DNA from: Escherichia phage phiWec190 | Sequence record: LC739539.1 | Reading direction: 5' to 3' (one strand) | Length of the DNA: 64,000 nucleotides | Made by a program: the position numbers and the translations under genes | Part shown: positions 27,994 through 60,476 of the stretch, piece by piece | Numbering within the stretch: position 1 is the first letter of the stretch | Layout of the letters: each line of letters starts with the position of its first letter | The notes under the pieces: model-generated | What the model was told of the DNA's origin: nothing | Databases searched by the model: none | The model's input: only the letters and a program-made list of their open reading frames with translations

Positions 27994-28199
27994 TTGTTAG
28001 TCTCCTCTTCATAAGTTGGTAGTTCATGATATGCGATCACAGGTGCCAAGTCAAAATAAAAATGACCATTGATAACAGCTATCGTGCCATTGCGTGTTTT
28101 GTTAACTTCACAGAATCCCTTCTTACCGTTTGCCATGATTACAAACCACTCTCCGACAGGAACATCCTCGGTGCCAGATACTTTAATCCATCCACTCAT
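27990..28199 (-). CDS. hypothetical protein (69 aa)
   Basis: ORF track. Confidence 0.4.
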   Translation of the reverse strand: MSGWIKVSGTEDVPVGEWFVIMANGKKGFCEVNKTRNGTIAVINGHFYFDLAPVIAYHELPTYEEETNK

Positions 28200-28456
28200 T
28201 TTACTTCCCCTTTGTAATCGGACACTATACCAGGTCTTACTTTTGCCTTAAGATGTTTCAACTCTGCCACAGGAGTTGCCACTTGTATAAGGTTAATAAT
28301 TTCAACCTCGTAGATAGTATACTCATAACCCGCATACTTCCCGATGGAATGCAGGTATTTGATAGCATGTTCAGGTGAATCTGCTTCAACATACCCCAAA
28401 TCTTTTGTAGTGCGGCCTTCACAGTCACCTTCTGTAGTTACGTGATAAAGTGTCAT
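28196..28456 (-). CDS. hypothetical protein (86 aa)
   Basis: ORF track. Confidence 0.45.
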   Translation of the reverse strand: MTLYHVTTEGDCEGRTTKDLGYVEADSPEHAIKYLHSIGKYAGYEYTIYEVEIINLIQVATPVAELKHLKAKVRPGIVSDYKGEVK

Positions 28457-28776
28457 AAAACCTCCTTCTTGTTGGCTGCTTCAATCATAGCGTTAAGAGT
28501 CTCCATACCGCTTTCAACTGCTTGAGCAATCTCTTGGAACACAGACTTCTTAAAGATGTATAAAGACCCTGCCTGTAAGCGTTGCACACAACATAAGATC
28601 GCTTGGTGATCCATCAGGAAGTCGCCGTAGGCTGAATCAATCTTACCTGTAATTGGGTTCTCTCGTGAACGAGGATCATACTCTAAAGTAATGTGTGTCA
28701 CGCCTGGTAAGGTAACAAACTGGCAGCGAATATTAACACGCGGTGCGATTGACACGCTAAACAGATTGTTGGACAT
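28453..28776 (-). CDS. hypothetical protein (107 aa)
   Basis: ORF track. Confidence 0.45.
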   Translation of the reverse strand: MSNNLFSVSIAPRVNIRCQFVTLPGVTHITLEYDPRSRENPITGKIDSAYGDFLMDHQAILCCVQRLQAGSLYIFKKSVFQEIAQAVESGMETLNAMIEAANKKEVL

Positions 28777-28923
28777 TTAAACCTCCTCGTAGTAAGGCAG
28801 AGCCTTGATCAATTGTTCTGAAGTCCCATTCTGCACCCATGTAGTCCCGTTGTCAAGCGAAACATAACCTTTCTTATCGACAAACTTACGTAGACAACCA
28901 GTGAACTTGTTTTTGTAGATCAT
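28777..28923 (-). CDS. small hypothetical protein (48 aa, not in track)
   Basis: Hand-read ORF MIYKNKFTGCLRKFVDKKGYVSLDNG... with ATGA overlaps to both neighbours. Confidence 0.35.
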   Translation of the reverse strand: MIYKNKFTGCLRKFVDKKGYVSLDNGTTWVQNGTSEQLIKALPYYEEV

Positions 28924-29336
28924 TTCTTCTTTCCTTTCTTCAGTTTGTTATGACCTTTACCTTTGTAAAGCTTGTGATTACGGGCAGACGGTTTATTTTG
29001 GTTATCGACACGGGACACCGGAGTTTGCCACATTGTATCTCCAGTAGCGAAAGATGCTGCCACAAGAAGTTCCAGGCAATGGTAGTCCAGTTCAGGCATC
29101 TTTGTTTCACGCATTTCGCGTTCTTCCTTATTGTCTTCTTCCTCAATTACAGACCAACCCTCTTCCTGCCAAGCTTCCCCTCTGAACCAAGTTTCCATGT
29201 TATAACCTTGTTCGTCGAGAATAACACCATCTCGCATCTCAAACCATTCGCCACCACAAAAATGGCGGTGCTCCACACGTCTACCTTCCTTCATTGCTTC
29301 TTTAGCTTCGGTCCAAGTCAGTTTGATGTTTTGCAT
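28920..29336 (-). CDS. hypothetical protein (138 aa), first gene of leftward block
   Basis: ORF track; RBS GAGAGGAGAAAACAA then ATG. Confidence 0.5.
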   Translation of the reverse strand: MQNIKLTWTEAKEAMKEGRRVEHRHFCGGEWFEMRDGVILDEQGYNMETWFRGEAWQEEGWSVIEEEDNKEEREMRETKMPELDYHCLELLVAASFATGDTMWQTPVSRVDNQNKPSARNHKLYKGKGHNKLKKGKKK

Positions 29337-29366
29337 TTGTTTTCTCCTCTCATTTGGTATGAGCTA

Positions 29367-29394
29367 ATCATAACAGAACCAAAAAGCTTGTCAA
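29367..29394 (-). promoter_or_regulatory. leftward sigma70-like promoter
   Basis: Minus strand TTGACA (29394-29389), 16 nt, TATGAT (29372-29367). Confidence 0.5.
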
Positions 29395-29397
29395 CAC

Positions 29398-29425
29398 TTG
29401 ACCTGAAATATTTTTAGTGTACAAT
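29398..29425 (+). promoter_or_regulatory. rightward sigma70-like promoter
   Basis: TTGACC 29398-29403, 16 nt, TACAAT 29420-29425; back to back with the leftward promoter. Confidence 0.5.
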
Positions 29426-29453
29426 AGCCCTACATTATTAAGAGAGGTGAACA

Positions 29454-29744
29454 ATGAATATTACATTAGCAACTAAGAACATTTCACAAACTATCAACGG
29501 TTTTGGTGTTATCGTGGCTTTGCACGGGAATAATGAGAAGTGGTTAGCATCTTTCGAAGAAGATGAAAAGCACAATGTTATCCTGAATGCTCCTATCAAG
29601 GTGATGCACATCGTTGGTGAGAGTAAGGTACTTACTTCTTCTCGTTCAGAGGAACAAATTACAAATGAATTAGTAAAACTGCTTGACAACGTTCTTCGGA
29701 TGTTTGATAATGCACCCATCGACACAAAACGTGTCTTAATGTGA
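29454..29744 (+). CDS. hypothetical protein (96 aa)
   Basis: ORF track; GAGAGG RBS. Confidence 0.5.
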   Translation: MNITLATKNISQTINGFGVIVALHGNNEKWLASFEEDEKHNVILNAPIKVMHIVGESKVLTSSRSEEQITNELVKLLDNVLRMFDNAPIDTKRVLM

Positions 29745-29757
29745 GAGGAGAAATACA

Positions 29758-30249
29758 ATGGCTTACCCTGACTACATCGACGAACGTGCTACTGGCTTCT
29801 TCCGTAACTTCTTGGTTGGTCGTTCTCACGGGGATGGTGGTTCCAGTTATAAAACAAGCTGGGATAGTCAATGTGGTGCTAAGGCCACCAAAACTTTGAA
29901 AATGCCAGGTCGTCCATTGTGCGCGTATTGCGGAAATGAAGCCTTATCCCTTCAGCCTGGTATTGAGCATGGGGATTATGATATTAAAGGTTACACTTGT
30001 GTCTGCAAAGGCGCAATGGACGAGGCGGATTGGGTGAAAGAAAAGGCAGAGATGGAGGAACGTCACAGACGAGAAGTTTATGAAATGGAAAAACGTATGC
30101 CTATTCCAGATCTTCAAGTTAAGAAAGATATTGTTGCAAAAATGATGGAAAAAGTTCAGAAAGCAGAGACTGAACAAGAATTAAACCGTGCGATCGAGAA
30201 CTTACGTAATTTTAAAGAAGAAAAAGAGTTGCGCGAGATTATGTGGTAA
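29758..30249 (+). CDS. hypothetical protein with Cys cluster
   Basis: 163 aa; CAYCGNEAL...CVCKGAMD. Confidence 0.5.
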   Translation: MAYPDYIDERATGFFRNFLVGRSHGDGGSSYKTSWDSQCGAKATKTLKMPGRPLCAYCGNEALSLQPGIEHGDYDIKGYTCVCKGAMDEADWVKEKAEMEERHRREVYEMEKRMPIPDLQVKKDIVAKMMEKVQKAETEQELNRAIENLRNFKEEKELREIMW

Positions 30250-30286
30250 GGTATACTACTTCCATCAACTAAGAGAGGAGAACAAA

Positions 30287-30574
30287 ATGTACTATTCACA
30301 AGACGAAGTGGCAAACATCAAATTAGCAGTTGGCGATCTTATTGTATCCCCTAAATATCACTGGGATAACACGGACATGGTTGAAGTAGTAACCCATGTC
30401 GGGGTTGAAGGCGTTGTTCTCTACACTCTGGGCGGAGGTGTTGTTGGGGAAATGGAACGTTATACGACAACGAAGAAACTGGTGAGTTCTTATCGTATGT
30501 TCTTACACAAAGGCTCGGAAGAGTATGCAGCCTTCTTATTGAAATTGGACGCAGAACGAGGAGAAACAAAATGA
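30287..30574 (+). CDS. hypothetical protein (95 aa)
   Basis: Track ORF 30188..30574 trimmed to Met with GAGAGGAG RBS. Confidence 0.45.
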   Translation: MYYSQDEVANIKLAVGDLIVSPKYHWDNTDMVEVVTHVGVEGVVLYTLGGGVVGEMERYTTTKKLVSSYRMFLHKGSEEYAAFLLKLDAERGETK

Positions 30575-30903
30575 AACTTATCCATGATGAATTACAGTTT
30601 GACGTAGAAGATCTGCAAGATTTGGACGATACGTTCTCCGCGATTATCTGTGCTGGACTGTATGCGTTCAAGGCACGTATTGTGGAACGAGGGGATATCC
30701 TTATCCCATCTAAGATTTGGGCTAAATATGTGTCAGATTACCGTAAACTAACAGAAGAGCAGGAGCGGGAAGCTACAGTGGAGTGGTTATCCATTATTGA
30801 TCAAATGATCGAAGGTTTTAAACCTGAATCAGTTATGACCAAAACAGATAAAATGGAAGGTCGTTGCCTGTTTGCTGAATACTTTCATAACTTGTGGAGC
30901 TAA
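30571..30903 (+). CDS. hypothetical protein (110 aa)
   Basis: ORF track. Confidence 0.5.
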   Translation: MKLIHDELQFDVEDLQDLDDTFSAIICAGLYAFKARIVERGDILIPSKIWAKYVSDYRKLTEEQEREATVEWLSIIDQMIEGFKPESVMTKTDKMEGRCLFAEYFHNLWS

Positions 30904-30905
30904 CT

Positions 30906-31082
30906 ATGTCTGAATTTTTTACAGTGGTTTTCTTAGGGATTTATCTGGTTATTAATGCTGTTGGCTTAATCATGTCTCTAATAGAGAATATGGGAATTAA
31001 GTGGGCTTGTACATTCGGTATAGCTCTTATGCTTAGTCCTGTTTGGATTTACATCTGCAAGGCAGTTCAACTAATTAGTTAA
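30906..31082 (+). CDS. small membrane protein
   Basis: Track ORF trimmed to MSEFFTVVFLGIYLVINAVGLIM...; two hydrophobic helices. Confidence 0.4.
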   Translation: MSEFFTVVFLGIYLVINAVGLIMSLIENMGIKWACTFGIALMLSPVWIYICKAVQLIS

Positions 31083-31091
31083 GGAGGGAAT

Positions 31092-31430
31092 ATGTTTAGT
31101 AAAGAAATGAAAGATGTGATTGCTACCCTGGTAGTTGATCACGGTATTGAGGTTGAGCGCCAGGTTTGGAAAGATGAAGCACCTTTCTTTGACTTGGCAT
31201 CACGAGCTAAAAGTCATATGCACCTGTTGGAAGACGGTAATGAGTTTGTTCTCCGTATGCGTTATGATCGAGAATTTCGAATTCCTCTTGACACTGAACC
31301 AGATGGTGTAGTATTGTGGTTGGCAGAACATTTCGCCTACGATGCACTACACGGACGGGGTTTCGGTAGTGAACGTTGGGATGCTGTTTGTCGTAAACAC
31401 CATATTGAACCAGACTACGGGAGTATGTAA
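31092..31430 (+). CDS. hypothetical protein (112 aa)
   Basis: ORF track; GGAGGG RBS. Confidence 0.5.
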   Translation: MFSKEMKDVIATLVVDHGIEVERQVWKDEAPFFDLASRAKSHMHLLEDGNEFVLRMRYDREFRIPLDTEPDGVVLWLAEHFAYDALHGRGFGSERWDAVCRKHHIEPDYGSM

Positions 31431-31681
31431 TGTTAAGCGTTAAGCCTAAGATGATTAGTGAAGACCAGAAAGATTTCATTTATAAGTGTGGACGAATCTG
31501 GAGAGAGTATACCAAGGGTAACGAGGTCGTGGTGGTTACTGAACACCAGATTGAAATCTCTGATCTTTTCGGTGATTATTTGCAAGTGATCAAATTAGGC
31601 ATTGACAGAGGTTTGGTTGAAGTGCTAACCTTATCTCAAGTTGAGGCACACCACTTAGATAAAACTATTGTGGAATTGTAG
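31430..31681 (+). CDS. hypothetical protein (83 aa)
   Basis: ORF track. Confidence 0.45.
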   Translation: MLSVKPKMISEDQKDFIYKCGRIWREYTKGNEVVVVTEHQIEISDLFGDYLQVIKLGIDRGLVEVLTLSQVEAHHLDKTIVEL

Positions 31682-31689
31682 GAGGTAAT

Positions 31690-31851
31690 ATGTTAGATCT
31701 TATTATCAAATCAAGTTTGACAGGTTGTTTGCTAAGTGCGTTGTCTGCACCTATCATAGGCGAATTTCATTCTCAATTAGGAATGTTTATCGCTTTAAGC
31801 GTGGCTACTCTGTTCTTGGTTGTAGCTGCATTGTGTATGTTGTTGGAATAA
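31690..31851 (+). CDS. small membrane protein (53 aa, not in track)
   Basis: Hand-read MLDLIIKSSLTGCLLSALSAPIIGEFHSQLGMFIALSVATLFLVVAALCMLLE after GGAGG RBS. Confidence 0.35.
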   Translation: MLDLIIKSSLTGCLLSALSAPIIGEFHSQLGMFIALSVATLFLVVAALCMLLE

Positions 31852-31863
31852 GAGGAGATCACC

Positions 31864-32223
31864 ATGAAAAAGATTATTTTAGCTGTAGCCCTGCTGTCTG
31901 CAAGTTTCGTAGCATCTGCTGCGCCGTTTGTGGCTGCACAGTCCACAAGCACCGGAGAAGTTGCAGTAACTGCTAAAGGCCACTTTGCTTATACTGATCC
32001 TGATGGCAAGTTCTTTACTTGCACGGATGTAACCCCGTCTGTGGATGTGGATAATTCTAATCGCCCATACGTGGCTATCGGCGCTGTGTGTGGCAACAAC
32101 TTCATCATCATGAAGCAGTATAAGGATGATCAAGGCGGTAGCCTCCTGATCCGTCAAGATGTTCAACAGAAGAAGAAAGCTGTGGTGATGGAAGCTATCA
32201 TCACTAAAGGCGAAGGGATCTAA
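31864..32223 (+). CDS. secreted/periplasmic protein
   Basis: 119 aa; signal peptide MKKIILAVALLSASFVASAAP. Confidence 0.5.
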   Translation: MKKIILAVALLSASFVASAAPFVAAQSTSTGEVAVTAKGHFAYTDPDGKFFTCTDVTPSVDVDNSNRPYVAIGAVCGNNFIIMKQYKDDQGGSLLIRQDVQQKKKAVVMEAIITKGEGI

Positions 32224-32231
32224 AATAAGTA

Positions 32232-32266
32232 TTGACAAGACGTATTAGACAAGAGATAATACGTCT
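32232..32266 (+). promoter_or_regulatory. sigma70-like promoter with overlapping 9-bp inverted repeat (operator-like)
   Basis: TTGACA 32232-32237, 17 nt, GATAAT 32255-32260; GACGTATTA...TAATACGTC flanks the -10. Confidence 0.5.
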
Positions 32267-32291
32267 ATTCCAACAGAAGAGGAGAGATTAA

Positions 32292-33431
32292 ATGAAATAC
32301 ACAGTGTACGGGGATGTTGCTATTGTTAATAAAGACTTCGGTGTAGAGGTTGATAAACTCCCCGCTGGCGTTTGGACTGTCAATTGTGATCCACATGGTA
32401 ACTACTCTCTTAGTCGTGCTGATAAGTTCACGATTCCTGATCGCCTGTACGGGGAAACCAAAGAACGTGCAGCCCACGTTATCCGTACCTTCGCTCGTCG
32501 TAGTAAAGAAGGTAAGAACACAGGTGTCCTGTTGTCGGGTACAAAAGGCAGTGGCAAGACAATGCTGGCAAAACTGATCAGTAACACTCTGTTGGAAGCG
32601 GAAGACCTGGGAATCCCAACTATTCTGGTAACGCAGCCATATTCTGATGCCAACTTCCTGGAGTTCATGAGTAAGATCTCTGAACGCGCAGTAGTACTGT
32701 TCGATGAGTTCGACAAAGTGTATTCCAAGAAGGAAGATCAGGAAGCACTGCTGACTCTGCTGGATGGCACAGGTAGCGGTAACAAACTGTTCATGCTGAC
32801 AAAGAACAGTGGATACATCTCGGAATACTTCGTCAACCGTCCGAGCCGTATCTTCTATAGCTTCAACTACGACAAGCTGTCTATTGAAACTATGCTGGAC
32901 TACTTGGACAAGAATCTGAAGAATCGCAAACATGTTGAAAGCTTCCAACGTTTGTGGGATGTTAGCACTGAACTGTCTTTCGATGTTATTCAAGGGATCG
33001 TAGAAGAGTTAAACTTCTATCCGAAAATGACGTTCAAGACCTGTCTGGAGATGATGGGTATCTCTCTGGGTAACGATGCACGCTGGACGATTAGCTCTAT
33101 TGTTGTCAACGGTAAAGCTATCAAGCCTAACTGGGTCAACAACTGGCATGAGTTCACTCCTACCAAGTTCTTGTCTGGTGCATGTGAACTGAACATCTAC
33201 CTGGAAGCAGTGAAGGACGAAGAACTGGAGCCTCTCGAAGATAGCAGCTACGTCATCCTGGATGATGATGGTGATCCACGCATCGACCTGAAAGCTACCG
33301 CCGAAGGTTTGAAGTGTGACCTGATTGAAGGTGGTAAGATTGTAGTAGTGAGCGATAAACCTGGAGATACGTTCCGCGTGGTTCTGGAACCAACCACTAC
33401 ACGATCTGCAACACTGAGCAGTGTGTTCTGA
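32292..33431 (+). CDS. AAA-type ATPase
   Basis: 379 aa; Walker A LLSGTKGSGKTMLAK, Walker B AVVLFDEFDKV. Confidence 0.6.
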   Translation: MKYTVYGDVAIVNKDFGVEVDKLPAGVWTVNCDPHGNYSLSRADKFTIPDRLYGETKERAAHVIRTFARRSKEGKNTGVLLSGTKGSGKTMLAKLISNTLLEAEDLGIPTILVTQPYSDANFLEFMSKISERAVVLFDEFDKVYSKKEDQEALLTLLDGTGSGNKLFMLTKNSGYISEYFVNRPSRIFYSFNYDKLSIETMLDYLDKNLKNRKHVESFQRLWDVSTELSFDVIQGIVEELNFYPKMTFKTCLEMMGISLGNDARWTISSIVVNGKAIKPNWVNNWHEFTPTKFLSGACELNIYLEAVKDEELEPLEDSSYVILDDDGDPRIDLKATAEGLKCDLIEGGKIVVVSDKPGDTFRVVLEPTTTRSATLSSVF

Positions 33432-33476
33432 TAAAGATGCCCCGCAAGGGGCATTTCTCATATACGGAGGAAAATT

Positions 33477-33842
33477 ATGTTAGTTGATGTTCAAATCATG
33501 CGTAACGAAAAAATGGATTTCTTTGAAGCAGTAGAGAAACATCTGATTCGATGGGACTATGAATTTATTCCTGCTGGGTGTGGACCAGTAGAGCACTTAA
33601 CGGAAGACGATGACGTATACATGATCATCCGTCAAGTGTACCAGACAGACCAATGTGAAGAAACTCCAGAACTGATTTTGTTTGAGTGTAAAGATCTTGC
33701 AAAATATTTTGACTATGGCGGAAAAGAGGGTCATAATCTCTCCAGATACAATAAACGTCTACTTATCTTAGACTACATGCGGAACAACAAACACAAACTC
33801 ATCGACGCAGACGCAGTTTATGGCTACTGGTGGATGGACTAA
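33477..33842 (+). CDS. hypothetical protein (121 aa)
   Basis: ORF track. Confidence 0.5.
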   Translation: MLVDVQIMRNEKMDFFEAVEKHLIRWDYEFIPAGCGPVEHLTEDDDVYMIIRQVYQTDQCEETPELILFECKDLAKYFDYGGKEGHNLSRYNKRLLILDYMRNNKHKLIDADAVYGYWWMD

Positions 33843-33855
33843 CAAAGGAGAAACT

Positions 33856-34044
33856 ATGGCACGTTTAGCAGATCATGAAATCTTTAAACCTATTCTGAAC
33901 CACTATAATGAACTTAAGGCAGTGTTGGATTGTTATAAAGAGGATGAAGAACGCTTGGAAGTCAATCTTAAGATAGTTCTGATGAAAGCTTTTCAAGACG
34001 GGCAAGCTGAAGTCTTAAGAGGTATGAAAAATGCGAATAACTGA
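33856..34044 (+). CDS. hypothetical protein (62 aa)
   Basis: Track ORF trimmed to MARLADHEIF... with AAGGAG RBS. Confidence 0.4.
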   Translation: MARLADHEIFKPILNHYNELKAVLDCYKEDEERLEVNLKIVLMKAFQDGQAEVLRGMKNANN

Positions 34045-34558
34045 TGAATATGTATTCTTCTTTTCACATAAAGATGTGTTTAGCAATTGGTACATTGCGC
34101 CATTTACAGAGACGGAACCAGGGTACAGTGACACTTTCTGTTGTGTAGAGCAATACATGATGTGGCGTAAGGCTTTGCTGTTCAAGGATCAGGTAATCGC
34201 AGCAGCTATCCTTTATCACTCAATGAAGCGTGACGACGAGAAGGGACAGGCGTACTACAAACGTATGGGTCGAGCGGTGTCTGGTTTTAATAATGACGTG
34301 TGGGAAGAGCACCGAGAGCGTATCGTAATGCGAGGCTTATGCTTGAAGTATACACAGAACCCTGATCTTTACTCTGACTTGCGCCTGTATCAATTCAAAA
34401 CATTCGTTGAGGCCAGCCCTTACGATAAGGTTTACGGAATTGGAATGGGTATGTATGAACCAGGGGTGCTTAATCCTGCCAACTGGAAAGGGCAGAATCT
34501 TTTAGGACAATACCACAACAATCTGATTAAAATCCTGTTCCCAGCCAAAATACCATAA
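34031..34558 (+). CDS. NADAR-like (DUF1768/YbiA-type) protein
   Basis: 175 aa; FFFSHKDVFSNWYIAPFTETEPGYSDTFCCVEQYMMWRKALLFKD fits the NADAR N-terminal signature. Confidence 0.55.
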   Translation: MRITDEYVFFFSHKDVFSNWYIAPFTETEPGYSDTFCCVEQYMMWRKALLFKDQVIAAAILYHSMKRDDEKGQAYYKRMGRAVSGFNNDVWEEHRERIVMRGLCLKYTQNPDLYSDLRLYQFKTFVEASPYDKVYGIGMGMYEPGVLNPANWKGQNLLGQYHNNLIKILFPAKIP

Positions 34559-34627
34559 AGGCGATATTCGTGATATTTTGAAAAAATTCGTTTTTAAAAA
34601 GAATACGTCAACTTTGTGCCACAGAAA

Positions 34628-34665
34628 AAGGCTCCTACAACCTCCGTAGAGAGCCTTTTTCTCTT
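34628..34665 (+). terminator. rho-independent terminator
   Basis: AGGCTCCTAC-AACCTCC-GTAGAGAGCCT followed by TTTTTCTCTTT. Confidence 0.65.
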
Positions 34666-35010
34666 TAGCTACACCAACACTCATCTTTTAGAGTTAACCT
34701 CGTTAGACGAGCATTCAGGTAGGTTGTAGGCTGCGTAGCATCTTCAGGAAAGATTATCTCAAATCTTACAAGCAAACTATCTCAAAAATCCCTACAATTA
34801 TTTAAACTTTTTATGAGTTTACAAAAACGAGAATCCAAAACCAAATTCTAAAGTTTACACACATTATCTCAAATGGGTGGACCAGATTGCAAAACAAAAA
34901 ACCGAGAAAAATTTTTAAAAAAGTCGCGCGCACCAGGTATTTAAAGTTTTTTTGCTTTTACAAAAGTGAAAGTTGAAAAGCAAATTCTAAAGTTTGCGTG
35001 AAAATTACCG

Positions 35011-35210
35011 AAATGAGAATTATTCTCACTTAAAATCGAAATACGAATGAGAATGATAATGATTCTCATTTAACATGGTAAATACGAATGATTCGCATTC
35101 AATAGCGTAAATGAGATTTATTCTCACCTTGCGAATGAGATTGATTCTCATTCAACTATCCAAATAAGATTGATTTTTATTCAATAAGGTAAATGATAAT
35201 CATTCTCATT
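35011..35210. repeat. array of about 7 imperfect palindromes resembling Fur-box hexamer repeats
   Basis: AATGAGAAT-n-ATTCTCATT type units about every 30 bp, e.g. GAATGAGAATGATAATGATTCTCATT and AATGATAATCATTCTCATT. Confidence 0.55.
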
Positions 35211-35471
35211 TAGAGAATGACGGGCAGGTCCGGTGATTATCTCGCGCTCCCGTGTCCCCTCGCCATGTAATAAGAATAACAGATCCAGCCAGGAAAGCAA
35301 GCGATTATTTTATCTTTACATTTCTTTACAAATATATAGCGCCCAGCCTCCCGGCGATCGACCTTCCAACCGGTGCCCCTGGTATGTTAGCCCCGCCTTT
35401 ACGCCGTGGGGGGTGGCGCTTCCTCTTCTGTATGTAAAACAGTATAAGCCCGATCCCTGGGCTTGTCAAGA

Positions 35472-35738
35472 CTATTTTTTGTCTTCTTGCCAGGCAAGAA
35501 CGCCTAACCAAAAATACATATCACCCCGCGCCCCTGGCGGTATCTTGTTTTCACCGCCGCCACTGCAAGCCCATAAATAACCATCAGCGAACGGATCAAA
35601 ATGGTCTATATCTTCCACTTTATGATCGCCCAAGGTGAGAACGGTTTCAACCTTTAAGCCCGTTGCGCTTGCTACCTGGTGGACCGTGCCGCCTTGCCAG
35701 CCTAAAGAGTGCATAAGGTGTAATGTAGTAGTTGTCAT
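35472..35738 (-). CDS. hypothetical protein in GC-rich island (uncertain)
   Basis: 88 aa track ORF, opposite orientation to neighbours, in a locally GC-rich 0.5 kb segment. Confidence 0.3.
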   Translation of the reverse strand: MTTTTLHLMHSLGWQGGTVHQVASATGLKVETVLTLGDHKVEDIDHFDPFADGYLWACSGGGENKIPPGARGDMYFWLGVLAWQEDKK

Positions 35739-35847
35739 GGTGTCGCCCTTTCTTTGTTGTGCGCCCTGGTTGGCGCGGTAGAAAGATAATAGCCCTTTCC
35801 TTTATATATAGCAAGCAAAAAAGAAATGAAAAAGATTGAAAAAGTGG

Positions 35848-35904
35848 TTGACGTTCGCCAGGTGGCGGCGTACTATTCATCACGTAGGGCGGCAATGGTG
35901 CTGC
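35848..35904 (+). promoter_or_regulatory. cassette promoter plus leader stem-loop (copy 1)
   Basis: TTGACG 35848-53, 17 nt, TACTAT 35871-76, leader CACGTAGGGCGGCAATGGTGCTGC (stem 35889-35904). Confidence 0.6.
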
Positions 35905-35925
35905 TCACTATCTGGAGTTAAGATC

Positions 35926-36123
35926 ATGGCAACATTGCACATAGTAGCGAAAGCAGGACAAATCAACGTAGTGGTAAACGGCTTTACTGAATTTAGTCAT
36001 CCTCAAGATGATCATGAAACGGTGCTATCTTTCATTGATTCCCTGTTAGAAATGGGAGTCATTACAGAAGACCAACACGCTACTAAATCCGAACGTGTCC
36101 GCCGTATCGCGGGTGAAGAATAA
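35926..36123 (+). CDS. small hypothetical protein (65 aa)
   Basis: Track ORF trimmed to first Met after leader; RBS GGAG. Confidence 0.5.
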   Translation: MATLHIVAKAGQINVVVNGFTEFSHPQDDHETVLSFIDSLLEMGVITEDQHATKSERVRRIAGEE

Positions 36124-36129
36124 AAAGTA

Positions 36130-36190
36130 TTGACAATACGCAACAACCTGATAAGATGTATCACGTAGAGCGGCGGAATGGTCCACCGCT
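36130..36190 (+). promoter_or_regulatory. cassette promoter plus leader stem-loop (copy 2)
   Basis: TTGACA 36130-35, 16 nt, TAAGAT, leader GTAGAGCGGCGGAATGGTCCACCGCTC. Confidence 0.6.
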
Positions 36191-36213
36191 CACAACTAAG
36201 AGAGATTATCATC

Positions 36214-36486
36214 ATGGCATCATATAGCGCAACAATGATCGTAACTGGCACCACTGGCAAACCTATGAGCGGTGGCGGATCTTTCGCTAACATCAATATT
36301 GACGGGCGCTTATCCCTGGACGCAGCGATCGCCGTAGCGCGGGAAACATTTAAGAAAGAATGTAATTTCAACAAGCAAGATTATTTAGGTTTCGCTATTG
36401 AAAAAACCGCGCGCTTTGTGGATTATAAAAGCCCGAAAATGGTTGATACTACATTAACAGCAAGACAAGTAAACTTTTTGCTGTAA
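36214..36486 (+). CDS. small hypothetical protein (90 aa)
   Basis: Track ORF trimmed to MASYSATM... after RBS AAGAGAGA. Confidence 0.5.
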   Translation: MASYSATMIVTGTTGKPMSGGGSFANINIDGRLSLDAAIAVARETFKKECNFNKQDYLGFAIEKTARFVDYKSPKMVDTTLTARQVNFLL

Positions 36487-36496
36487 GGGGGCTAAC

Positions 36497-36757
36497 GTGC
36501 ACTTTCTTAAGGTATGCGGGAAGATCATAGCCTTTCGTAATGAGGAATTTTATAACCTTGCTCGTTATGTTATGATCTACCCTGGCAAGGTATATAAAAA
36601 CAGTCCGACAAGTTACACTATTTACAATGTGCTATCAGGTAAAACCACGGAGATCATAAAAGGAGGGGTGAGAGATTATCGTACATCTTTCTATCCTTGC
36701 CGTGATTCCGCCAGCTTATTTTTTGTGTGTGAAATGATTGTTAAAAGGGGTGTATAA
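36497..36757 (+). CDS. hypothetical protein (86 aa, GTG start)
   Basis: ORF track; RBS AAGGGGG. Confidence 0.45.
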   Translation: MHFLKVCGKIIAFRNEEFYNLARYVMIYPGKVYKNSPTSYTIYNVLSGKTTEIIKGGVRDYRTSFYPCRDSASLFFVCEMIVKRGV

Positions 36758-37314
36758 TGGGGCGCGAATATGTGATCCAGTCCTGGGTAAAACATGACGT
36801 TAATGATCCGCGCATTATACCGGACGACATGATCGATCATGCTCCTGGCTATAGTGGCGAGCAAGTAGGCAACAGATCGGCGCGTAGTCATGGGAATACC
36901 AAAACACGCAGCGATCGCCCTGGTTGGCTGGCAAATGGTAACGCTGACATTGCAAGCGCCGCAGATGATAGCGACGGCGCGAAAGATAATCCGCTGTACA
37001 AGGTAGATCCGGCTTTTCGTGTCCTGGATGAATACCCCAGCAAGATAGCGGCGCTTGATGCCGCGCTCGAAAGTAAGCGCATCACCTGGACGGCGTACAG
37101 TACTGCAAAAAGCGTATTAGATGGTAAGCTGATCCAAGCTGAAAGGAAATTGGCCAAAATTGCAGCCATAGCCCAGGAGGAAGACCAGGAAGAGGAAGAC
37201 GATCACGCGGTTGAGTGCATCACCTTTGATCACTTCCTTCCAGTCTTTGAGGCATCACAAGAAGAGAAGAAAGAAGCCGAAAAAAATTATCTTTATTTTG
37301 ATGATTTAGGTTGA
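36757..37314 (+). CDS. hypothetical protein (185 aa) with acidic C-terminus
   Basis: ORF track; stop/start overlap with upstream gene. Confidence 0.5.
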   Translation: MGREYVIQSWVKHDVNDPRIIPDDMIDHAPGYSGEQVGNRSARSHGNTKTRSDRPGWLANGNADIASAADDSDGAKDNPLYKVDPAFRVLDEYPSKIAALDAALESKRITWTAYSTAKSVLDGKLIQAERKLAKIAAIAQEEDQEEEDDHAVECITFDHFLPVFEASQEEKKEAEKNYLYFDDLG

Positions 37315-37368
37315 CAGGTAAAACGTGATCACTTATAGTTAACTCATAGGGCGGCAACGGTGCCGCTC
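37311..37368 (+). promoter_or_regulatory. cassette promoter plus leader stem-loop (copy 3)
   Basis: TTGACA 37311-16, 17 nt, TATAGT 37334-39, leader CATAGGGCGGCAACGGTGCCGCTCACAAC. Confidence 0.6.
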
Positions 37369-37388
37369 ACAACCGAAAGGATAGAAAA

Positions 37389-37472
37389 ATGTTTACTACT
37401 TCCCTGTTTTTTGCAATCAATTTTATTCCTGGTTTCCGTGCTGCACTTGAAATCATTCTTTGGACACTGTAA
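37389..37472 (+). CDS. micro-ORF hydrophobic peptide (27 aa)
   Basis: Hand-read MFTTSLFFAINFIPGFRAALEIILWTL right after leader and RBS AAAGGA; not in track. Confidence 0.4.
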   Translation: MFTTSLFFAINFIPGFRAALEIILWTL

Positions 37473-37479
37473 GGAAAAC

Positions 37480-37590
37480 ATGATGATCAAGAAAGAAAAC
37501 AGTTTGACAGTTGGAACGATTAACGCTATTATCTTGGTTGTTCCATTTTGGATCACCGTAGCAGTTATCACAACAATCATTTTCAAGTAA
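37480..37590 (+). CDS. micro-ORF membrane peptide (36 aa)
   Basis: MMIKKENSLTVGTINAIILVVPFWITVAVITTIIFK; in-frame tail of track ORF 37360..37590, whose annotated start lies inside the stem-loop. Confidence 0.4.
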   Translation: MMIKKENSLTVGTINAIILVVPFWITVAVITTIIFK

Positions 37591-37600
37591 GGGGCACACC

Positions 37601-37792
37601 ATGTTTAAAAATATCACTGGCAACGTAGCAACATTGAAAGCAGGTGACAAGGTAGAATTGCACCGGATCACAATGACAGTAGCGCACATTGAAAAAGTGC
37701 CACCGCATCACCGCAAGATCTCGCTAACTTGCAACAAGGGGCGTAACATTACCGCCACATTGCACGAAAAAGATAACGTAGTCATTCTATAA
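37601..37792 (+). CDS. small hypothetical protein (63 aa)
   Basis: ORF track; RBS AAGGGG. Confidence 0.45.
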   Translation: MFKNITGNVATLKAGDKVELHRITMTVAHIEKVPPHHRKISLTCNKGRNITATLHEKDNVVIL

Positions 37793-37802
37793 GGCGGACA
37801 CT

Positions 37803-38084
37803 ATGAGCAAGGTAATTAGTCACGAAAAACTAAGCCCTACCCTATCGATCAGTGAATGCAACGATGGTTATTGGCTATACGATGAAACGCGCGGCATGAA
37901 TTTATCGATGCAAGCGAAAACCGAACAAGCGGCATATGTGCAAGCCCTGGAATATTACCAGCGACGACTACAGGAAGTTGAGAACAATTATAAAAGCCTG
38001 AAATCAAAGGTTGATCACTTTATCAGCCAGGCGGCAGATGACGACGATGATCACTATTGCGAGCGGTGCGGATCATACAGTTAA
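37803..38084 (+). CDS. small hypothetical protein (93 aa)
   Basis: ORF track; C-terminal CERCGS. Confidence 0.45.
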   Translation: MSKVISHEKLSPTLSISECNDGYWLYDETRGMNLSMQAKTEQAAYVQALEYYQRRLQEVENNYKSLKSKVDHFISQAADDDDDHYCERCGSYS

Positions 38085-38092
38085 AAATATCC

Positions 38093-38154
38093 TTGACAAC
38101 GTTTCAAAAAGTAGTAAGCTGTATCACATAGGGCGGCGGAATGGTCCACCGCTC
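38093..38154 (+). promoter_or_regulatory. cassette promoter plus leader stem-loop (copy 4)
   Basis: TTGACA 38093-98, TAAGCT, leader CACATAGGGCGGCGGAATGGTCCACCGCTC. Confidence 0.55.
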
Positions 38155-38174
38155 AAAACAGAAGAGAGAATATC

Positions 38175-38420
38175 ATGAAACACTTATCATCTATCACCAA
38201 TCACAATGAAATCTTTGTTAATGAAAAAGGTTACGCCTGGATTCAGTTAAAAGAGATGAAAAATAACCGTCGTGTAACGGTTGTTCGTAAAATTAAAAGC
38301 AAGCCTTTTAGTAACTTCTCGATTGATACCGTGCGGATCAAGAATGAAGAATACTTGATCGATAGCCAAATCACTTGGAGCTTAACGGCATCAGCCGCCG
38401 CACCATATTTCGCAAACTAA
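38175..38420 (+). CDS. small hypothetical protein (81 aa)
   Basis: ORF track. Confidence 0.5.
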   Translation: MKHLSSITNHNEIFVNEKGYAWIQLKEMKNNRRVTVVRKIKSKPFSNFSIDTVRIKNEEYLIDSQITWSLTASAAAPYFAN

Positions 38421-38431
38421 GAAAAAAACGT

Positions 38432-38488
38432 TTGACACTGTTTAAAATTCTGTTATAGTTTATCACGTAGGGCGGCAATGGTGCCGCC
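38432..38488 (+). promoter_or_regulatory. cassette promoter plus leader stem-loop (copy 5)
   Basis: TTGACA 38432-37, 16 nt, TATAGT, leader CACGTAGGGCGGCAATGGTGCCGCC. Confidence 0.6.
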
Positions 38489-38509
38489 AACAATAAAAAG
38501 GTTATCATC

Positions 38510-38689
38510 ATGGCTATCATTGCAAAAACTGAAATCGTGGGCTTAGATTCCATTCTTCTGACATATAAGGAAACGTTAGGAATGTATGTAGTAACCTATG
38601 GGGATTATGTGCATGAATACGAATATATTGATCTTGCTTTCGAATGTTACATTCGTCAGGTCAATCAAGCCTATAATGATTATCGTTAA
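38510..38689 (+). CDS. small hypothetical protein (59 aa, not in track)
   Basis: Hand-read MAIIAKTEIVGLDSILLTYKETLGMYVV... Confidence 0.4.
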   Translation: MAIIAKTEIVGLDSILLTYKETLGMYVVTYGDYVHEYEYIDLAFECYIRQVNQAYNDYR

Positions 38690-38708
38690 AAGTTTTAGTC
38701 TTGTGCTA

Positions 38709-38761
38709 TTGACAATAGGCGATAGTACAAGCATAATAACTTTTATCGGGAATACTTCCCA
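38709..38761 (+). promoter_or_regulatory. cassette promoter with variant leader hairpin (copy 6)
   Basis: TTGACA 38709-14, 17 nt, CATAAT 38732-37, hairpin GGGAA-TAC-TTCCC. Confidence 0.5.
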
Positions 38762-38786
38762 CTAACCAAAAAGAGAGAGTAAGAAC

Positions 38787-39152
38787 ATGGCTAAAAATAT
38801 CAATGTGTCCGCTTATGCTACCCTGGCTAACACTGCTAAAATCGAACTATCCAGCATTGAAGCAGTGCACATTAGCGCCCGTCGCTGGTTTCAACAGTCC
38901 TACGGTAATACATATTTTTCTTTAAGTGTGGACGTCGAGATCTGCGGTAAATTGATTGAAGTGGTTAACGTTCCGTTTCAATATGGCTATGGTGATCATT
39001 TTGATACCGTCGCCCTGGAAGAATTTAGCAAGGTTATCAACCTTGAAGGCAAAGAATTTTCACGCGGCAGCTATCTTTCCCGTTTTTGCCGTGACAATGG
39101 GATCGCTGTATACAGTCATGCAAGCGATGTTAAGCGTAAAAAAGATTTATAA
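38787..39152 (+). CDS. hypothetical protein (121 aa)
   Basis: ORF track. Confidence 0.5.
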   Translation: MAKNINVSAYATLANTAKIELSSIEAVHISARRWFQQSYGNTYFSLSVDVEICGKLIEVVNVPFQYGYGDHFDTVALEEFSKVINLEGKEFSRGSYLSRFCRDNGIAVYSHASDVKRKKDL

Positions 39153-39158
39153 AAGACG

Positions 39159-39220
39159 TTGACAGCACGAATAAAAAGAGTAAACTGTATTACATAGGGC
39201 GCGGGAATAGTTCCCGCCCC
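39159..39220 (+). promoter_or_regulatory. cassette promoter plus leader stem-loop (copy 7)
   Basis: TTGACA 39159-64, 16 nt, TAAACT, leader ACATAGGGCGCGGGAATAGTTCCCGCCCC. Confidence 0.6.
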
Positions 39221-39241
39221 ACTCAAAGAGAGATTAACATC

Positions 39242-39481
39242 ATGGCTAAATCAAAAATGTTCTTAGGTCACAAAAATAAAAATCATTGGAATGTAAGCCT
39301 TTGGATTAACAACGATGAATCATTGTATCGGTTGGCCCTGGACTTTATTAACGATAGCACTAATCGCAATGATGCGGCCCGTCATATGATGCTATTTTTA
39401 CAAGAGACTGGACAAGATAAGACTCCAGACGGTTTCAAATATAGCACTACTGCGATCCGCGCCGCGATGGTCGGAATGTAA
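39242..39481 (+). CDS. small hypothetical protein (79 aa)
   Basis: ORF track. Confidence 0.5.
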   Translation: MAKSKMFLGHKNKNHWNVSLWINNDESLYRLALDFINDSTNRNDAARHMMLFLQETGQDKTPDGFKYSTTAIRAAMVGM

Positions 39482-39490
39482 TAAAAACAG

Positions 39491-39548
39491 TTGACAACGT
39501 TTTAAATTAGTGTAAGATGTATCACATAGGGGCGACAAGCGCCCCGCC
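39491..39548 (+). promoter_or_regulatory. cassette promoter plus leader stem-loop (copy 8)
   Basis: TTGACA 39491-96, 16 nt, TAAGAT, leader CACATAGGGGCGACAAGCGCCCCGCC. Confidence 0.6.
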
Positions 39549-39568
39549 TAACAGAAGAGAGAAAAATC

Positions 39569-39796
39569 ATGGCTATCAATATTGTTCGCGTATCCGGCAC
39601 CGTTGGCACTTCCCAGGTTATAGCCGTTGTAACAAATAAAAAGATTAATGATGTATGTGAGATCTTGAATAAGTGGGCTATTGCTAATTTTGGGGAATAT
39701 GCGAGCGTTGAGTACATCGAATCTTATCAGGTGCCAACCATCAGCCTGACCGATCTCAACGTTGATCGCCTGTTATGCCTGGACGAATTAATCTGA
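39569..39796 (+). CDS. small hypothetical protein (75 aa)
   Basis: ORF track. Confidence 0.5.
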   Translation: MAINIVRVSGTVGTSQVIAVVTNKKINDVCEILNKWAIANFGEYASVEYIESYQVPTISLTDLNVDRLLCLDELI

Positions 39797-39805
39797 AAAA
39801 GATTG

Positions 39806-39862
39806 TTGACACGGGAAAGAAAAAGAGTAAACTGTATTACGTAGGGCGGCAATGGTGCCGCC
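39806..39862 (+). promoter_or_regulatory. cassette promoter plus leader stem-loop (copy 9)
   Basis: TTGACA 39806-11, 16 nt, TAAACT, leader ACGTAGGGCGGCAATGGTGCCGCC. Confidence 0.6.
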
Positions 39863-39881
39863 AGCAAGAAGAGAGATTATC

Positions 39882-40097
39882 ATGATGGCTAATATCCGCA
39901 CACTGTTAAAAAATGCAAGTCGAGTTTTATTTTCCGATCACGATTATTTCAATAAAGACATTACAGGCGTTAAGAACATCAAAGATGTAAAAAGTGTTAT
40001 GGGTATATATTGCAATGTGAAACGTGTTGGAACTTTTAGCAACAAGGTAGTATATCAGGCAGGGGATTACAATTTTACACTAACAATCTTAAATTAA
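39882..40097 (+). CDS. small hypothetical protein (71 aa)
   Basis: Track ORF trimmed to MMANIRT... after leader. Confidence 0.45.
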   Translation: MMANIRTLLKNASRVLFSDHDYFNKDITGVKNIKDVKSVMGIYCNVKRVGTFSNKVVYQAGDYNFTLTILN

Positions 40098-46564: not shown

Positions 46565-46623
46565 TTGACACCGGATCACGCTTATATTATTATTTATCAC
46601 GTAGGGCGGGAATGTTTCCCGTC
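46565..46623 (+). promoter_or_regulatory. cassette promoter plus leader stem-loop (copy 22)
   Basis: TTGACA 46565-70, about 17 nt, TATTAT, leader CACGTAGGGCGGGAATGTTTCCCG. Confidence 0.55.
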
Positions 46624-46641
46624 TAATATAGGAATAACACC

Positions 46642-60235: not shown

Positions 60236-60451
60236 ATGCAAATCGAAGAGTCGGAAGAAGAACTGATGTTCATGGGTTTGAATATGTATCGTGTAGATTA
60301 CACCATGTGTGGTGTGGAATACTCTGTCCGAGTGGGAGCTTCGTCCAAATTCCAAGCCCCTTTCCGAGCAGGTCTTATCTTAGGGACTTGTCTTGCAAAC
60401 ATTGATGATGTGCAGATCCAGAGAGTAGTACTGGAAGCAGAAAACATTTGA
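60236..60451 (+). CDS. small hypothetical protein (71 aa)
   Basis: ORF track. Confidence 0.45.
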   Translation: MQIEESEEELMFMGLNMYRVDYTMCGVEYSVRVGASSKFQAPFRAGLILGTCLANIDDVQIQRVVLEAENI

Positions 60452-60476
60452 CAGAGAGTGTCAGACATATTATAGT
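60448..60476 (+). promoter_or_regulatory. sigma70-like promoter with inverted repeat TGACA-GAGAG-TGTCA over -35
   Basis: TTGACA 60448-53, 17 nt, TATAGT 60471-76. Confidence 0.5.

Follow-up and report, generated by a model that had tools for sequence, protein, structure and literature searches.

A candidate stem-loop promoter cassette preceding a putative ring-forming AAA ATPase gene in a Stephanstirmvirinae phage

Promoter-early stem-loops (PeSLs) are composite cassettes of T4-like phages (Arbiol et al. 2010, PMC2839356; Comeau et al. 2014, PMC4122927). As defined, a PeSL comprises a stop codon in AT-rich DNA, a strong sigma70 promoter, a stem-loop that lies between the −35 and −10 hexamers or over the −10, and then a Shine-Dalgarno (SD) sequence and an ATG (PMC2839356). 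These cassettes sit at the joints of module shuffling (PMC2839356; PMC4122927). We analyzed a locus of similar anatomy in a 64,000-nt stretch of Escherichia phage phiWec190 (LC739539.1; hereafter the window), in which a promoter overlapped by a perfect inverted repeat directly precedes the gene of a 379-aa AAA ATPase. Positions 32100-33600 of the window are a 100% match to Escherichia phage phiWec188 (LC739537.1, minus strand), a virulent myovirus of the Stephanstirmvirinae with a 149.8-kb genome. This phage has been assigned to the proposed new genus 'Wecvirus' (PMC12695924). Window searches covered the 64 kb, and genome-wide searches for repeats and sites covered the 149,831-bp phiWec188 genome.

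From the TAA stop codon of the upstream gene (32221-32223), the cassette runs through AAATAAGTA, TTGACA, 17 nt of spacer, GATAAT and AGGAG to the ATG, spanning 71 nt. Its order of elements is that of a PeSL: a stop codon in AT-rich DNA, a promoter, a stem-loop over the spacer and −10, an SD sequence and an ATG. It also lies, as PeSLs do, among small early open reading frames (ORFs) and at a boundary of module replacement, and textbook PeSLs (A3-4G3-loop-C3T3-4) are found directly 5′ of homologues of the ATPase gene in environmental loci. The palindrome is most likely the stem-loop part of a PeSL-type composite cassette. For the locus as a whole, we tentatively propose a self-contained early-gene cassette that combines a PeSL-type stem-loop promoter with a ring-forming, protein-remodelling AAA ATPase, a reading that we hold to be plausible if somewhat short of probable.

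Promoter, inverted repeat and module joint

The ATPase promoter consists of TTGACA at 32232-32237 and GATAAT at 32255-32260 on the + strand, separated by a 17-bp spacer. The two hexamers match the sigma70 consensus at 11 of 12 positions, in agreement with a preliminary description of this DNA, which had placed a separate promoter 5′ of the gene. Eighteen promoters scoring at least 11/12 are present in the window, as compared to 1.3 ± 1.3 in shuffled sequences, a 14-fold enrichment. These data indicate that the promoter class is real and that the ATPase promoter, as one of its members, is credible. The leader and the GAGGAG ribosome-binding site are of the same kind as those at other promoters of the window, and the SD sequence AGGAG (32280-32284, + strand) lies 7 nt 5′ of the ATG. 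According to standard sigma70 geometry, transcription is predicted to start near 32267. At the other end of the gene (32292-33431, + strand), a terminator-like hairpin of −17.7 kcal/mol with a GCAA loop is followed by a weak U tract (33435-33456, + strand), and the equivalent site in phage ASO2A is annotated as a rho-independent terminator. The gene is thus equipped with a promoter of its own, as had been proposed, and with a terminator-like hairpin.

The left arm of the inverted repeat, AGACGTATTA (32238-32247), starts directly after the −35 hexamer. The right arm, TAATACGTCT (32257-32266), shares 4 nt with the 3′ end of the −10 and stops immediately short of the predicted start site. The arms are 10 bp long and 100% complementary, with 9 nt between them. 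The preliminary description had correctly recognized a perfect repeat but gave its length as 9 bp, one base too few. It had also embedded the whole −10 in the repeat; TAAT does belong to the right arm, but GA lies in the loop, so the embedding is incomplete.

We evaluated the repeat against chance expectation. When only perfect inverted repeats with arms of 10 bp or more and no more than 20 nt of spacer are counted, there are two loci in the window and five in the genome. Shuffled sequences contained a mean of 2.1 such ten-mer repeats per 64 kb, about the observed count, so the bare palindrome is not exceptional. The probability that any of the 18 promoters carries such a repeat was about 0.009 in simulations with fixed hexamers, and the ATPase promoter is the only one of the 18 whose arms exceed 7 bp. 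Of these promoters, 8 of 18 carry a stem of 6 bp or more, versus 19% of random windows (p = 0.014); these stems vary in sequence and position. No second copy of the palindrome was detected in the window or in the genome, nor any site within 3 mismatches of 18, the best other candidates in the genome having 4 mismatches of 18. Isolated half-sites occur at chance frequency in the window (3 versus 3.6 expected). The sole near-copy of a half-site in the window, AGACATATTA with one mismatch, falls at 60448-60476 within a different near-consensus promoter, over its spacer and −10. This is probably a coincidence, given that the number of matches is at the chance level.

The operon that contains the ATPase gene begins at a divergent promoter region near 29400. 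There, two back-to-back promoters at 29367-29425 (TTGACA-16-TATGAT on the − strand and TTGACC-16-TACAAT on the + strand) split the leftward from the rightward early gene blocks, and the ATPase gene is approximately the tenth of the rightward block. Scanning from the upstream promoters, which lie near 29400 and 29683, identified no + strand terminator before 32232, so that read-through RNA would contain the repeat as a hairpin. In such RNA, the arms are predicted to form a hairpin of −12.5 kcal/mol (z = −3.5).

To assess conservation, we compared 13 distinct haplotypes of the clade, comprising GenBank phages, one IMG/VR contig and Logan metagenome contigs, whose divergence over the compared stretch is 1.3-3.4%. 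Variable sites number 41 of 360 in the upstream gene and 85 of 1140 in the ATPase gene, or 8.4% of the flanking coding sequence. Of the 68 intergenic positions, three vary (32286, 32288 and 32291), all between the SD sequence and the ATG. The 62-nt block that follows the upstream stop codon and extends to the SD sequence (32224-32285, + strand), which holds the promoter, the repeat and the leader, has no variable site in the 13 haplotypes, with a P of about 0.004 at the coding-region rate. Of its 50 positions outside the hexamers, about 4 would be expected to vary, and none does. Both the arms and the 9-nt spacer of the repeat are invariant in 13/13 haplotypes; more distant relatives lack the element. 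The invariance indicates that the block is probably constrained; together with the conditional probability of about 0.009, it makes the cassette probably functional. The conservation data do not tell which part of the block is constrained, or why.

The intergenic cassette is confined to the clade of phiWec188, phiWec179, phiWec181, phiWec186 and PsgM04F. In ESCO5, ASO2A and ECO340P2, which belong to the sister genus Phapecoctavirus, there is no intergenic stretch and no promoter, and the ATPase ATG overlaps the upstream stop codon (TAATG). Separate regulation is therefore a clade-specific acquisition and not a property of the gene. In a gene-by-gene comparison with ESCO5, the ATPase and almost all of its neighbours are 80-97% identical. 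Two small genes on the + strand directly upstream of the cassette (31690-32223) are far more divergent: that at 31690-31851, encoding 53 aa, is just 47% identical to its ESCO5 counterpart, and that at 31864-32223, encoding 119 aa with a signal-peptide-like N-terminus, is 39% identical. The position of these genes between well-conserved neighbours identifies the cassette as the 3′ edge of a replaced two-gene module.

In the mechanism that we propose, a strong host sigma70-type promoter would re-initiate transcription just 5′ of the ATPase gene, and the hairpin terminator would close the transcription unit. Transcripts reading through from the upstream operon would fold the repeat into an RNA hairpin. 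Possible effects of this hairpin on the upstream message are attenuation, processing or insulation, and fresh transcripts would come from the promoter embedded in the cassette. Cassettes of this type also mark joints at which gene modules are swapped, the 3′ edge of the two-gene module being the joint in the present case.

The ATPase and its family

The predicted protein is identical to BDU13375.1 of phiWec188, a 'hypothetical protein'. It matches PF00004 over residues 79-184 with a score of 37.6 bits (gathering cutoff 21.2; E = 3.5e-9) and phrog_2376, 'ATPase', with E = 6e-109. Walker A (GTKGSGKT) and Walker B (LFDEFD) correspond to residues 83-90 and 136-141, which bears out the preliminary description of an AAA-type ATPase with these motifs. 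In an alignment of 45 homologues, the Walker residues G83, K85, G86, G88, K89, T90, D138 and E139 are invariant, as are K142, Q150, D158-G159-G161, T170, N172 (sensor 1) and R183-P184-R186, in which R183 and R186 are the Arg fingers. The D158-G159-G161 residues correspond to the LLxxMDG helix of classical AAA proteins, and the core has an LLTLLDG motif. The same alignment contains no invariant Arg or Lys at residues 196-260, and thus no conserved sensor-2 Arg; an aromatic residue (Y/F117) is conserved at the position of pore loop 1. By these motifs the protein is a classical-clade AAA ATPase, and we consider the AAA assignment, like that of the promoter, to be sound.

An AlphaFold model of the monomer (predicted local distance difference test score of 85) comprises an N-terminal five-strand beta domain, an AAA core, a helical lid and a C-terminal alpha/beta domain. 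The beta domain, residues 1-50 (32292-32441, + strand), is delimited by the model and by family conservation, with G17, L40 and P49 invariant, and has no Pfam match. The core and lid span residues 56-255 (32457-33056, + strand). The closest structures are those of BCS1, bacterial TRIP13 and NSF-D2, and a phmmer search of the PDB identified the D2 domain of p97/Cdc48. The C-terminal domain, residues about 262-370 (33075-33401, + strand), is variable in sequence. Its only resemblances in the BFVD are to the C-termini of phage ATPases of the same family, which marks it as a family-specific fold. The preliminary description had set this region apart as a long C-terminal domain, and it is indeed a distinct domain of no known fold. 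No DNA-binding fold was recognized in either the N- or the C-terminal domain.

The family is large. A search of 1.84 billion representatives with a hidden Markov model retrieved 2996 clusters, drawn at 50% identity, at E ≤ 1e-30, nearly all of 350-410 aa. According to tblastn, the gene is present in 393 phage records, always annotated 'ATPase' or 'hypothetical', which span Stephanstirmvirinae, Rak2-like jumbo phages, Aeromonas and Felix-like phages, Herelleviridae, Lactococcus 949-like phages and crAss-like phages. Searches with PADLOC and NCBIfam returned only generic P-loop matches far below their cutoffs and hence no defence or anti-defence assignment. Literature searches yielded nothing functional on this ATPase family or on the promoters of phiWec188, in agreement with the preliminary description, which assigned the protein no role. 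We also sought a conserved gene partner; neighbour clustering over 72 loci gave none, the most frequent neighbour being NAMPT, directly upstream in 7 of the 72.

The best-supported view of the protein is that of an ATP-driven, ring-forming remodeller of proteins that is produced early. The ATPase is predicted to assemble into a ring and to remodel or unfold a protein substrate with ATP early in infection. The conserved N-domain would target the substrate, with the variable C-domain serving as an adaptor specific to the lineage. Two features weigh against this view. Pore loop 1 is about 6 residues long (TQPYSD) and is without the canonical aromatic-hydrophobic-Gly motif. In addition, one short crAss-like homologue is encoded between a Holliday-junction resolvase and an Mre11-like nuclease, in a replication/recombination module. 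The latter suggests a weaker rival, which concerns the protein only: an accessory factor of DNA metabolism that loads or remodels replication or recombination proteins or DNA and is not a general unfoldase. Consistent with such a role, there are weak profile matches to clamp-loader and DnaC-like PHROGs (E 3e-6 to 1e-5) and to Hda, DnaA and RFC models. Nevertheless, it is the classical clade that supplies the best matches in sequence and structure, and the known members of this clade have proteins as substrates. The diagnostic motifs (LLxxLDG, a second region of homology with two Arg, no sensor-2 Arg) are classical as well. Moreover, the gene is located among small early ORFs and not in replication modules in phiWec188, Bcp1, LAh_8 and AM2, and none of its neighbours is conserved across the loci clustered above. 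We therefore regard a role in DNA metabolism as improbable.

Stem-loop, operator or chance repeat

Several observations weigh against the reading of the repeat as a PeSL-type stem-loop. PeSLs have been described only in T4-like phages, whereas the present cassette occurs in Stephanstirmvirinae. Their stems are typically G/C-rich and effective as terminators or attenuators, whereas the stem at the ATPase promoter is AT-rich, with 3 G-C pairs in 10, and has a 9-nt loop and no U tract after it. By its sequence, the 32238-32266 stem would be inefficient as an intrinsic terminator, and it was not among the terminators detected by the scan. Within the phage, too, this stem is an outlier, being 10 bp and perfect where those at the other promoters are only 6-7 bp. 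Finally, the arms are identical in all 13 haplotypes, and there is thus no covariation to tell an RNA stem from a protein-binding site.

One alternative is that the palindrome has no function of its own, being a chance repeat or a recombination scar within a functional promoter cassette. The block would then be kept only through constraint on the promoter and leader, or through recent common descent. That perfect repeats of this length are no more frequent genome-wide than in shuffles agrees with this explanation, as do the location of the repeat at a recombination joint and the post hoc choice of the palindrome from 64 kb of sequence. The clade is also young, and the invariance of the block is only modestly significant. 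It is harder to reconcile with the low conditional probability over the 18 promoters, with the invariance of the 50 non-hexamer positions and with the general enrichment of stems at the phage's promoters. On balance, we find this explanation doubtful, although it ranks second after a PeSL-like stem-loop.

A true operator ranks third. In this case, a dimeric DNA-binding protein of phage or host would bind both 10-bp half-sites and occlude the spacer, −10 and start site, switching the ATPase promoter off (or on) at a set time of infection. The dyad does occupy precisely the interval between the −35 and the predicted +1. Its occurrence at a single promoter of the 18, with the small conditional chance given above, and the invariance of the non-hexamer positions are equally compatible with an operator, and an AT-rich stem that lacks a U tract and would terminate weakly leaves room for a role at the level of DNA. 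The 'classic repressor-operator' layout of the preliminary description does not hold up well, however. The site is unique in the 150-kb genome, with nothing within 3 mismatches of 18 and with half-sites at chance frequency. A scan of ten neighbouring ORFs, which did not take in the roughly 290 other phage ORFs or the host regulators, turned up no Pfam DNA-binding domain, and the ATPase itself has none. The entire cassette is missing from the sister genus, and its anatomy is that of the published PeSL definition. A centre-to-centre spacing of 19 bp around a non-palindromic 9-bp spacer is unusual for a simple dimeric repressor. Hairpins are, furthermore, as frequent 5′ of other genes as they are 5′ of ATPase homologues. 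Overall, the operator is a possible but unsupported reading, the locus is better explained by a promoter/stem-loop cassette at a joint of recombination, and no result calls for a repressor. We consider an operator unlikely. A more specific version, in which a phage or host dimeric protein acts at a genuine single-site operator to time the expression of a dosage-sensitive AAA unfoldase whose family-specific N and C domains target a conserved host protein, is more unlikely still. If true, it would place a widespread, hitherto undescribed host-takeover or anti-defence machine under dedicated control, and this machine would belong to a pan-phage family of about 3000 clusters that extends from coliphages to Herelleviridae and crAss-like phages.

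Two further candidates were considered and rejected. An operator conserved 5′ of the ATPase homologues was suggested by repeats of 10-11 bp across the promoter in Serratia phage BF and several IMG/VR loci. Such repeats occur 5′ of 6 of 35 homologues and 5′ of 50 of 291 other genes in the same loci (17% in both cases; Fisher p = 1), which indicates that they are a generic intergenic feature. The site was also compared with the boxes of host regulators (the MetJ met box AGACGTCT, the Fur box and LacI-family sites). Each arm matches the met box at 7 of 8 positions, but the arms are 21 bp apart and not in the tandem 8-bp register, and we took the resemblance to be a coincidence.

Surroundings and comparison with known systems

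The site directly 3′ of the ATPase gene is variable among the relatives. An endonuclease ORF of about 1-1.2 kb directly follows the ATPase terminator in many of them, among which are ESCO5, ECO340P2, PsgM04F, phiWec179, phiWec181, phiWec186 and some metagenome contigs of Wecvirus that have a CapR/DUF723 ORF. In our locus set, the endonuclease ORF lies at 3878-4873 of L002, 3683-4891 of L003, 5360-5959 of L106 and 5320-5913 of L107. The window has only a 45-nt gap at this site (33432-33476). In the unrelated phages Aeromonas LAh_8 and Lactococcus AM2, an (HNH) endonuclease likewise adjoins the ATPase homologue downstream. From these sequences, the site beside the ATPase gene looks like a recurrent hot spot for homing endonucleases. 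PsgM04F (L002; OR584014.1), a 'Pseudomonas phage' with Pseudomonas coronafaciens as its recorded host, shares 97.5% identity with these E. coli phages over the region, and its host assignment looks surprising.

Three genes 3′ of the ATPase, 34031-34558 encodes a 175-aa NADAR-domain protein (PF08719, E = 5e-34), whose homologue in ESCO5 is annotated 'GTP cyclohydrolase II'. In environmental T4-like loci, read by eye from their sequences, the ATPase homologue often adjoins NAMPT and a macro-domain-like gene. These NADAR, NAMPT and macro-domain neighbours form a loose NAD/ADP-ribose theme. In environmental contigs L018, L025, L036, L042, L051, L054, L068, L069 and L071, a tRNA-like gene, also recognized by eye, lies about 130 nt upstream of the ATPase homologue. 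The tRNA cluster of phiWec188 is at record positions 60.8-63.3 kb, and the window is without tRNA. The ORF at 30287-30574, hypothetical in the record, encodes a 95-aa protein that is clearly a Phage tudor domain protein (PF24144, E = 2e-25).

Some promoters of the window share additional elements. Those at 37311-37390, 38432-38510 and 46565-46640 have a conserved GC-rich leader hairpin, similar to GGGCGGCAAYGGTGCCGCC, right after the −10, which may be a 5′-leader element common to a promoter subclass. The + strand promoters at 46565, 47388, 52475 and 59611, as well as that at 37311, have in common a GGATC(A/T) motif within the spacer, a few bases 3′ of the −35 hexamer. The motif may mark a co-regulated promoter subclass or reflect an effect of the Dam site (GATC). 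Within an ORF-poor region of about 1.2 kb (34560-35835) lie a perfect inverted repeat of 12 bp that encloses a 16-nt loop (34623-34662), a − strand promoter with a stem between its −35 and −10 (35469-35441), and G-rich hairpins near 35402-35425. Rfam gave no match in 28000-40000, an interval that covers this region and the leader hairpins located there.

On present evidence, the ATPase unit is a routine early-gene unit: its promoter layout has published precedent, and the protein of relatives is already annotated 'ATPase'. The finding may nonetheless extend PeSL-like cassettes at module joints beyond T4-like phages to Stephanstirmvirinae, which would bear on the shuffling of accessory genes in large virulent phages. 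The ATPase family is very large and is found only in phages, among them phages of Gram-negative and Gram-positive hosts and crAss-like phages, and homing endonucleases appear to have repeatedly inserted beside the gene. Its substrate, once found, would annotate thousands of genes.

Compared to lac O1, tetO and lambda OR, the palindrome is similarly a perfect dyad over the spacer, −10 and start site, and its occupancy would block RNA polymerase. It differs from these operators in being a single site with a half-site spacing of 19 bp, in that no cognate regulator was identified among the ten neighbouring ORFs scanned, and in its absence from sister phages. The protein has its nearest described counterparts in the phrog_2376 homologues, including those of phAPEC8, ESCO5 (gp153), Serratia phage BF and Cronobacter phage GAP32, whose annotation as 'putative ATPase' rests on motif alone. 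These proteins have the same length and the same three domains; the identity is 80% for those of Phapecoctavirus and 44-45% for those of Rak2-like jumbo phages. Relative to the classical-clade AAA proteins (p97/Cdc48 D2, NSF D2, BCS1, TRIP13/Pch2, Msp1/ATAD1 and katanin/spastin), the phage ATPase is only 14-20% identical and has a short pore loop 1, its N-terminal beta and C-terminal domains have no detectable relatives, and its family is exclusively phage-borne. It shares with them Walker A and B, the LLxxLDG helix, the sensor-1 Asn and the second region of homology with two arginines, and it has the architecture of a single AAA module preceded by an N-terminal domain of the substrate type.

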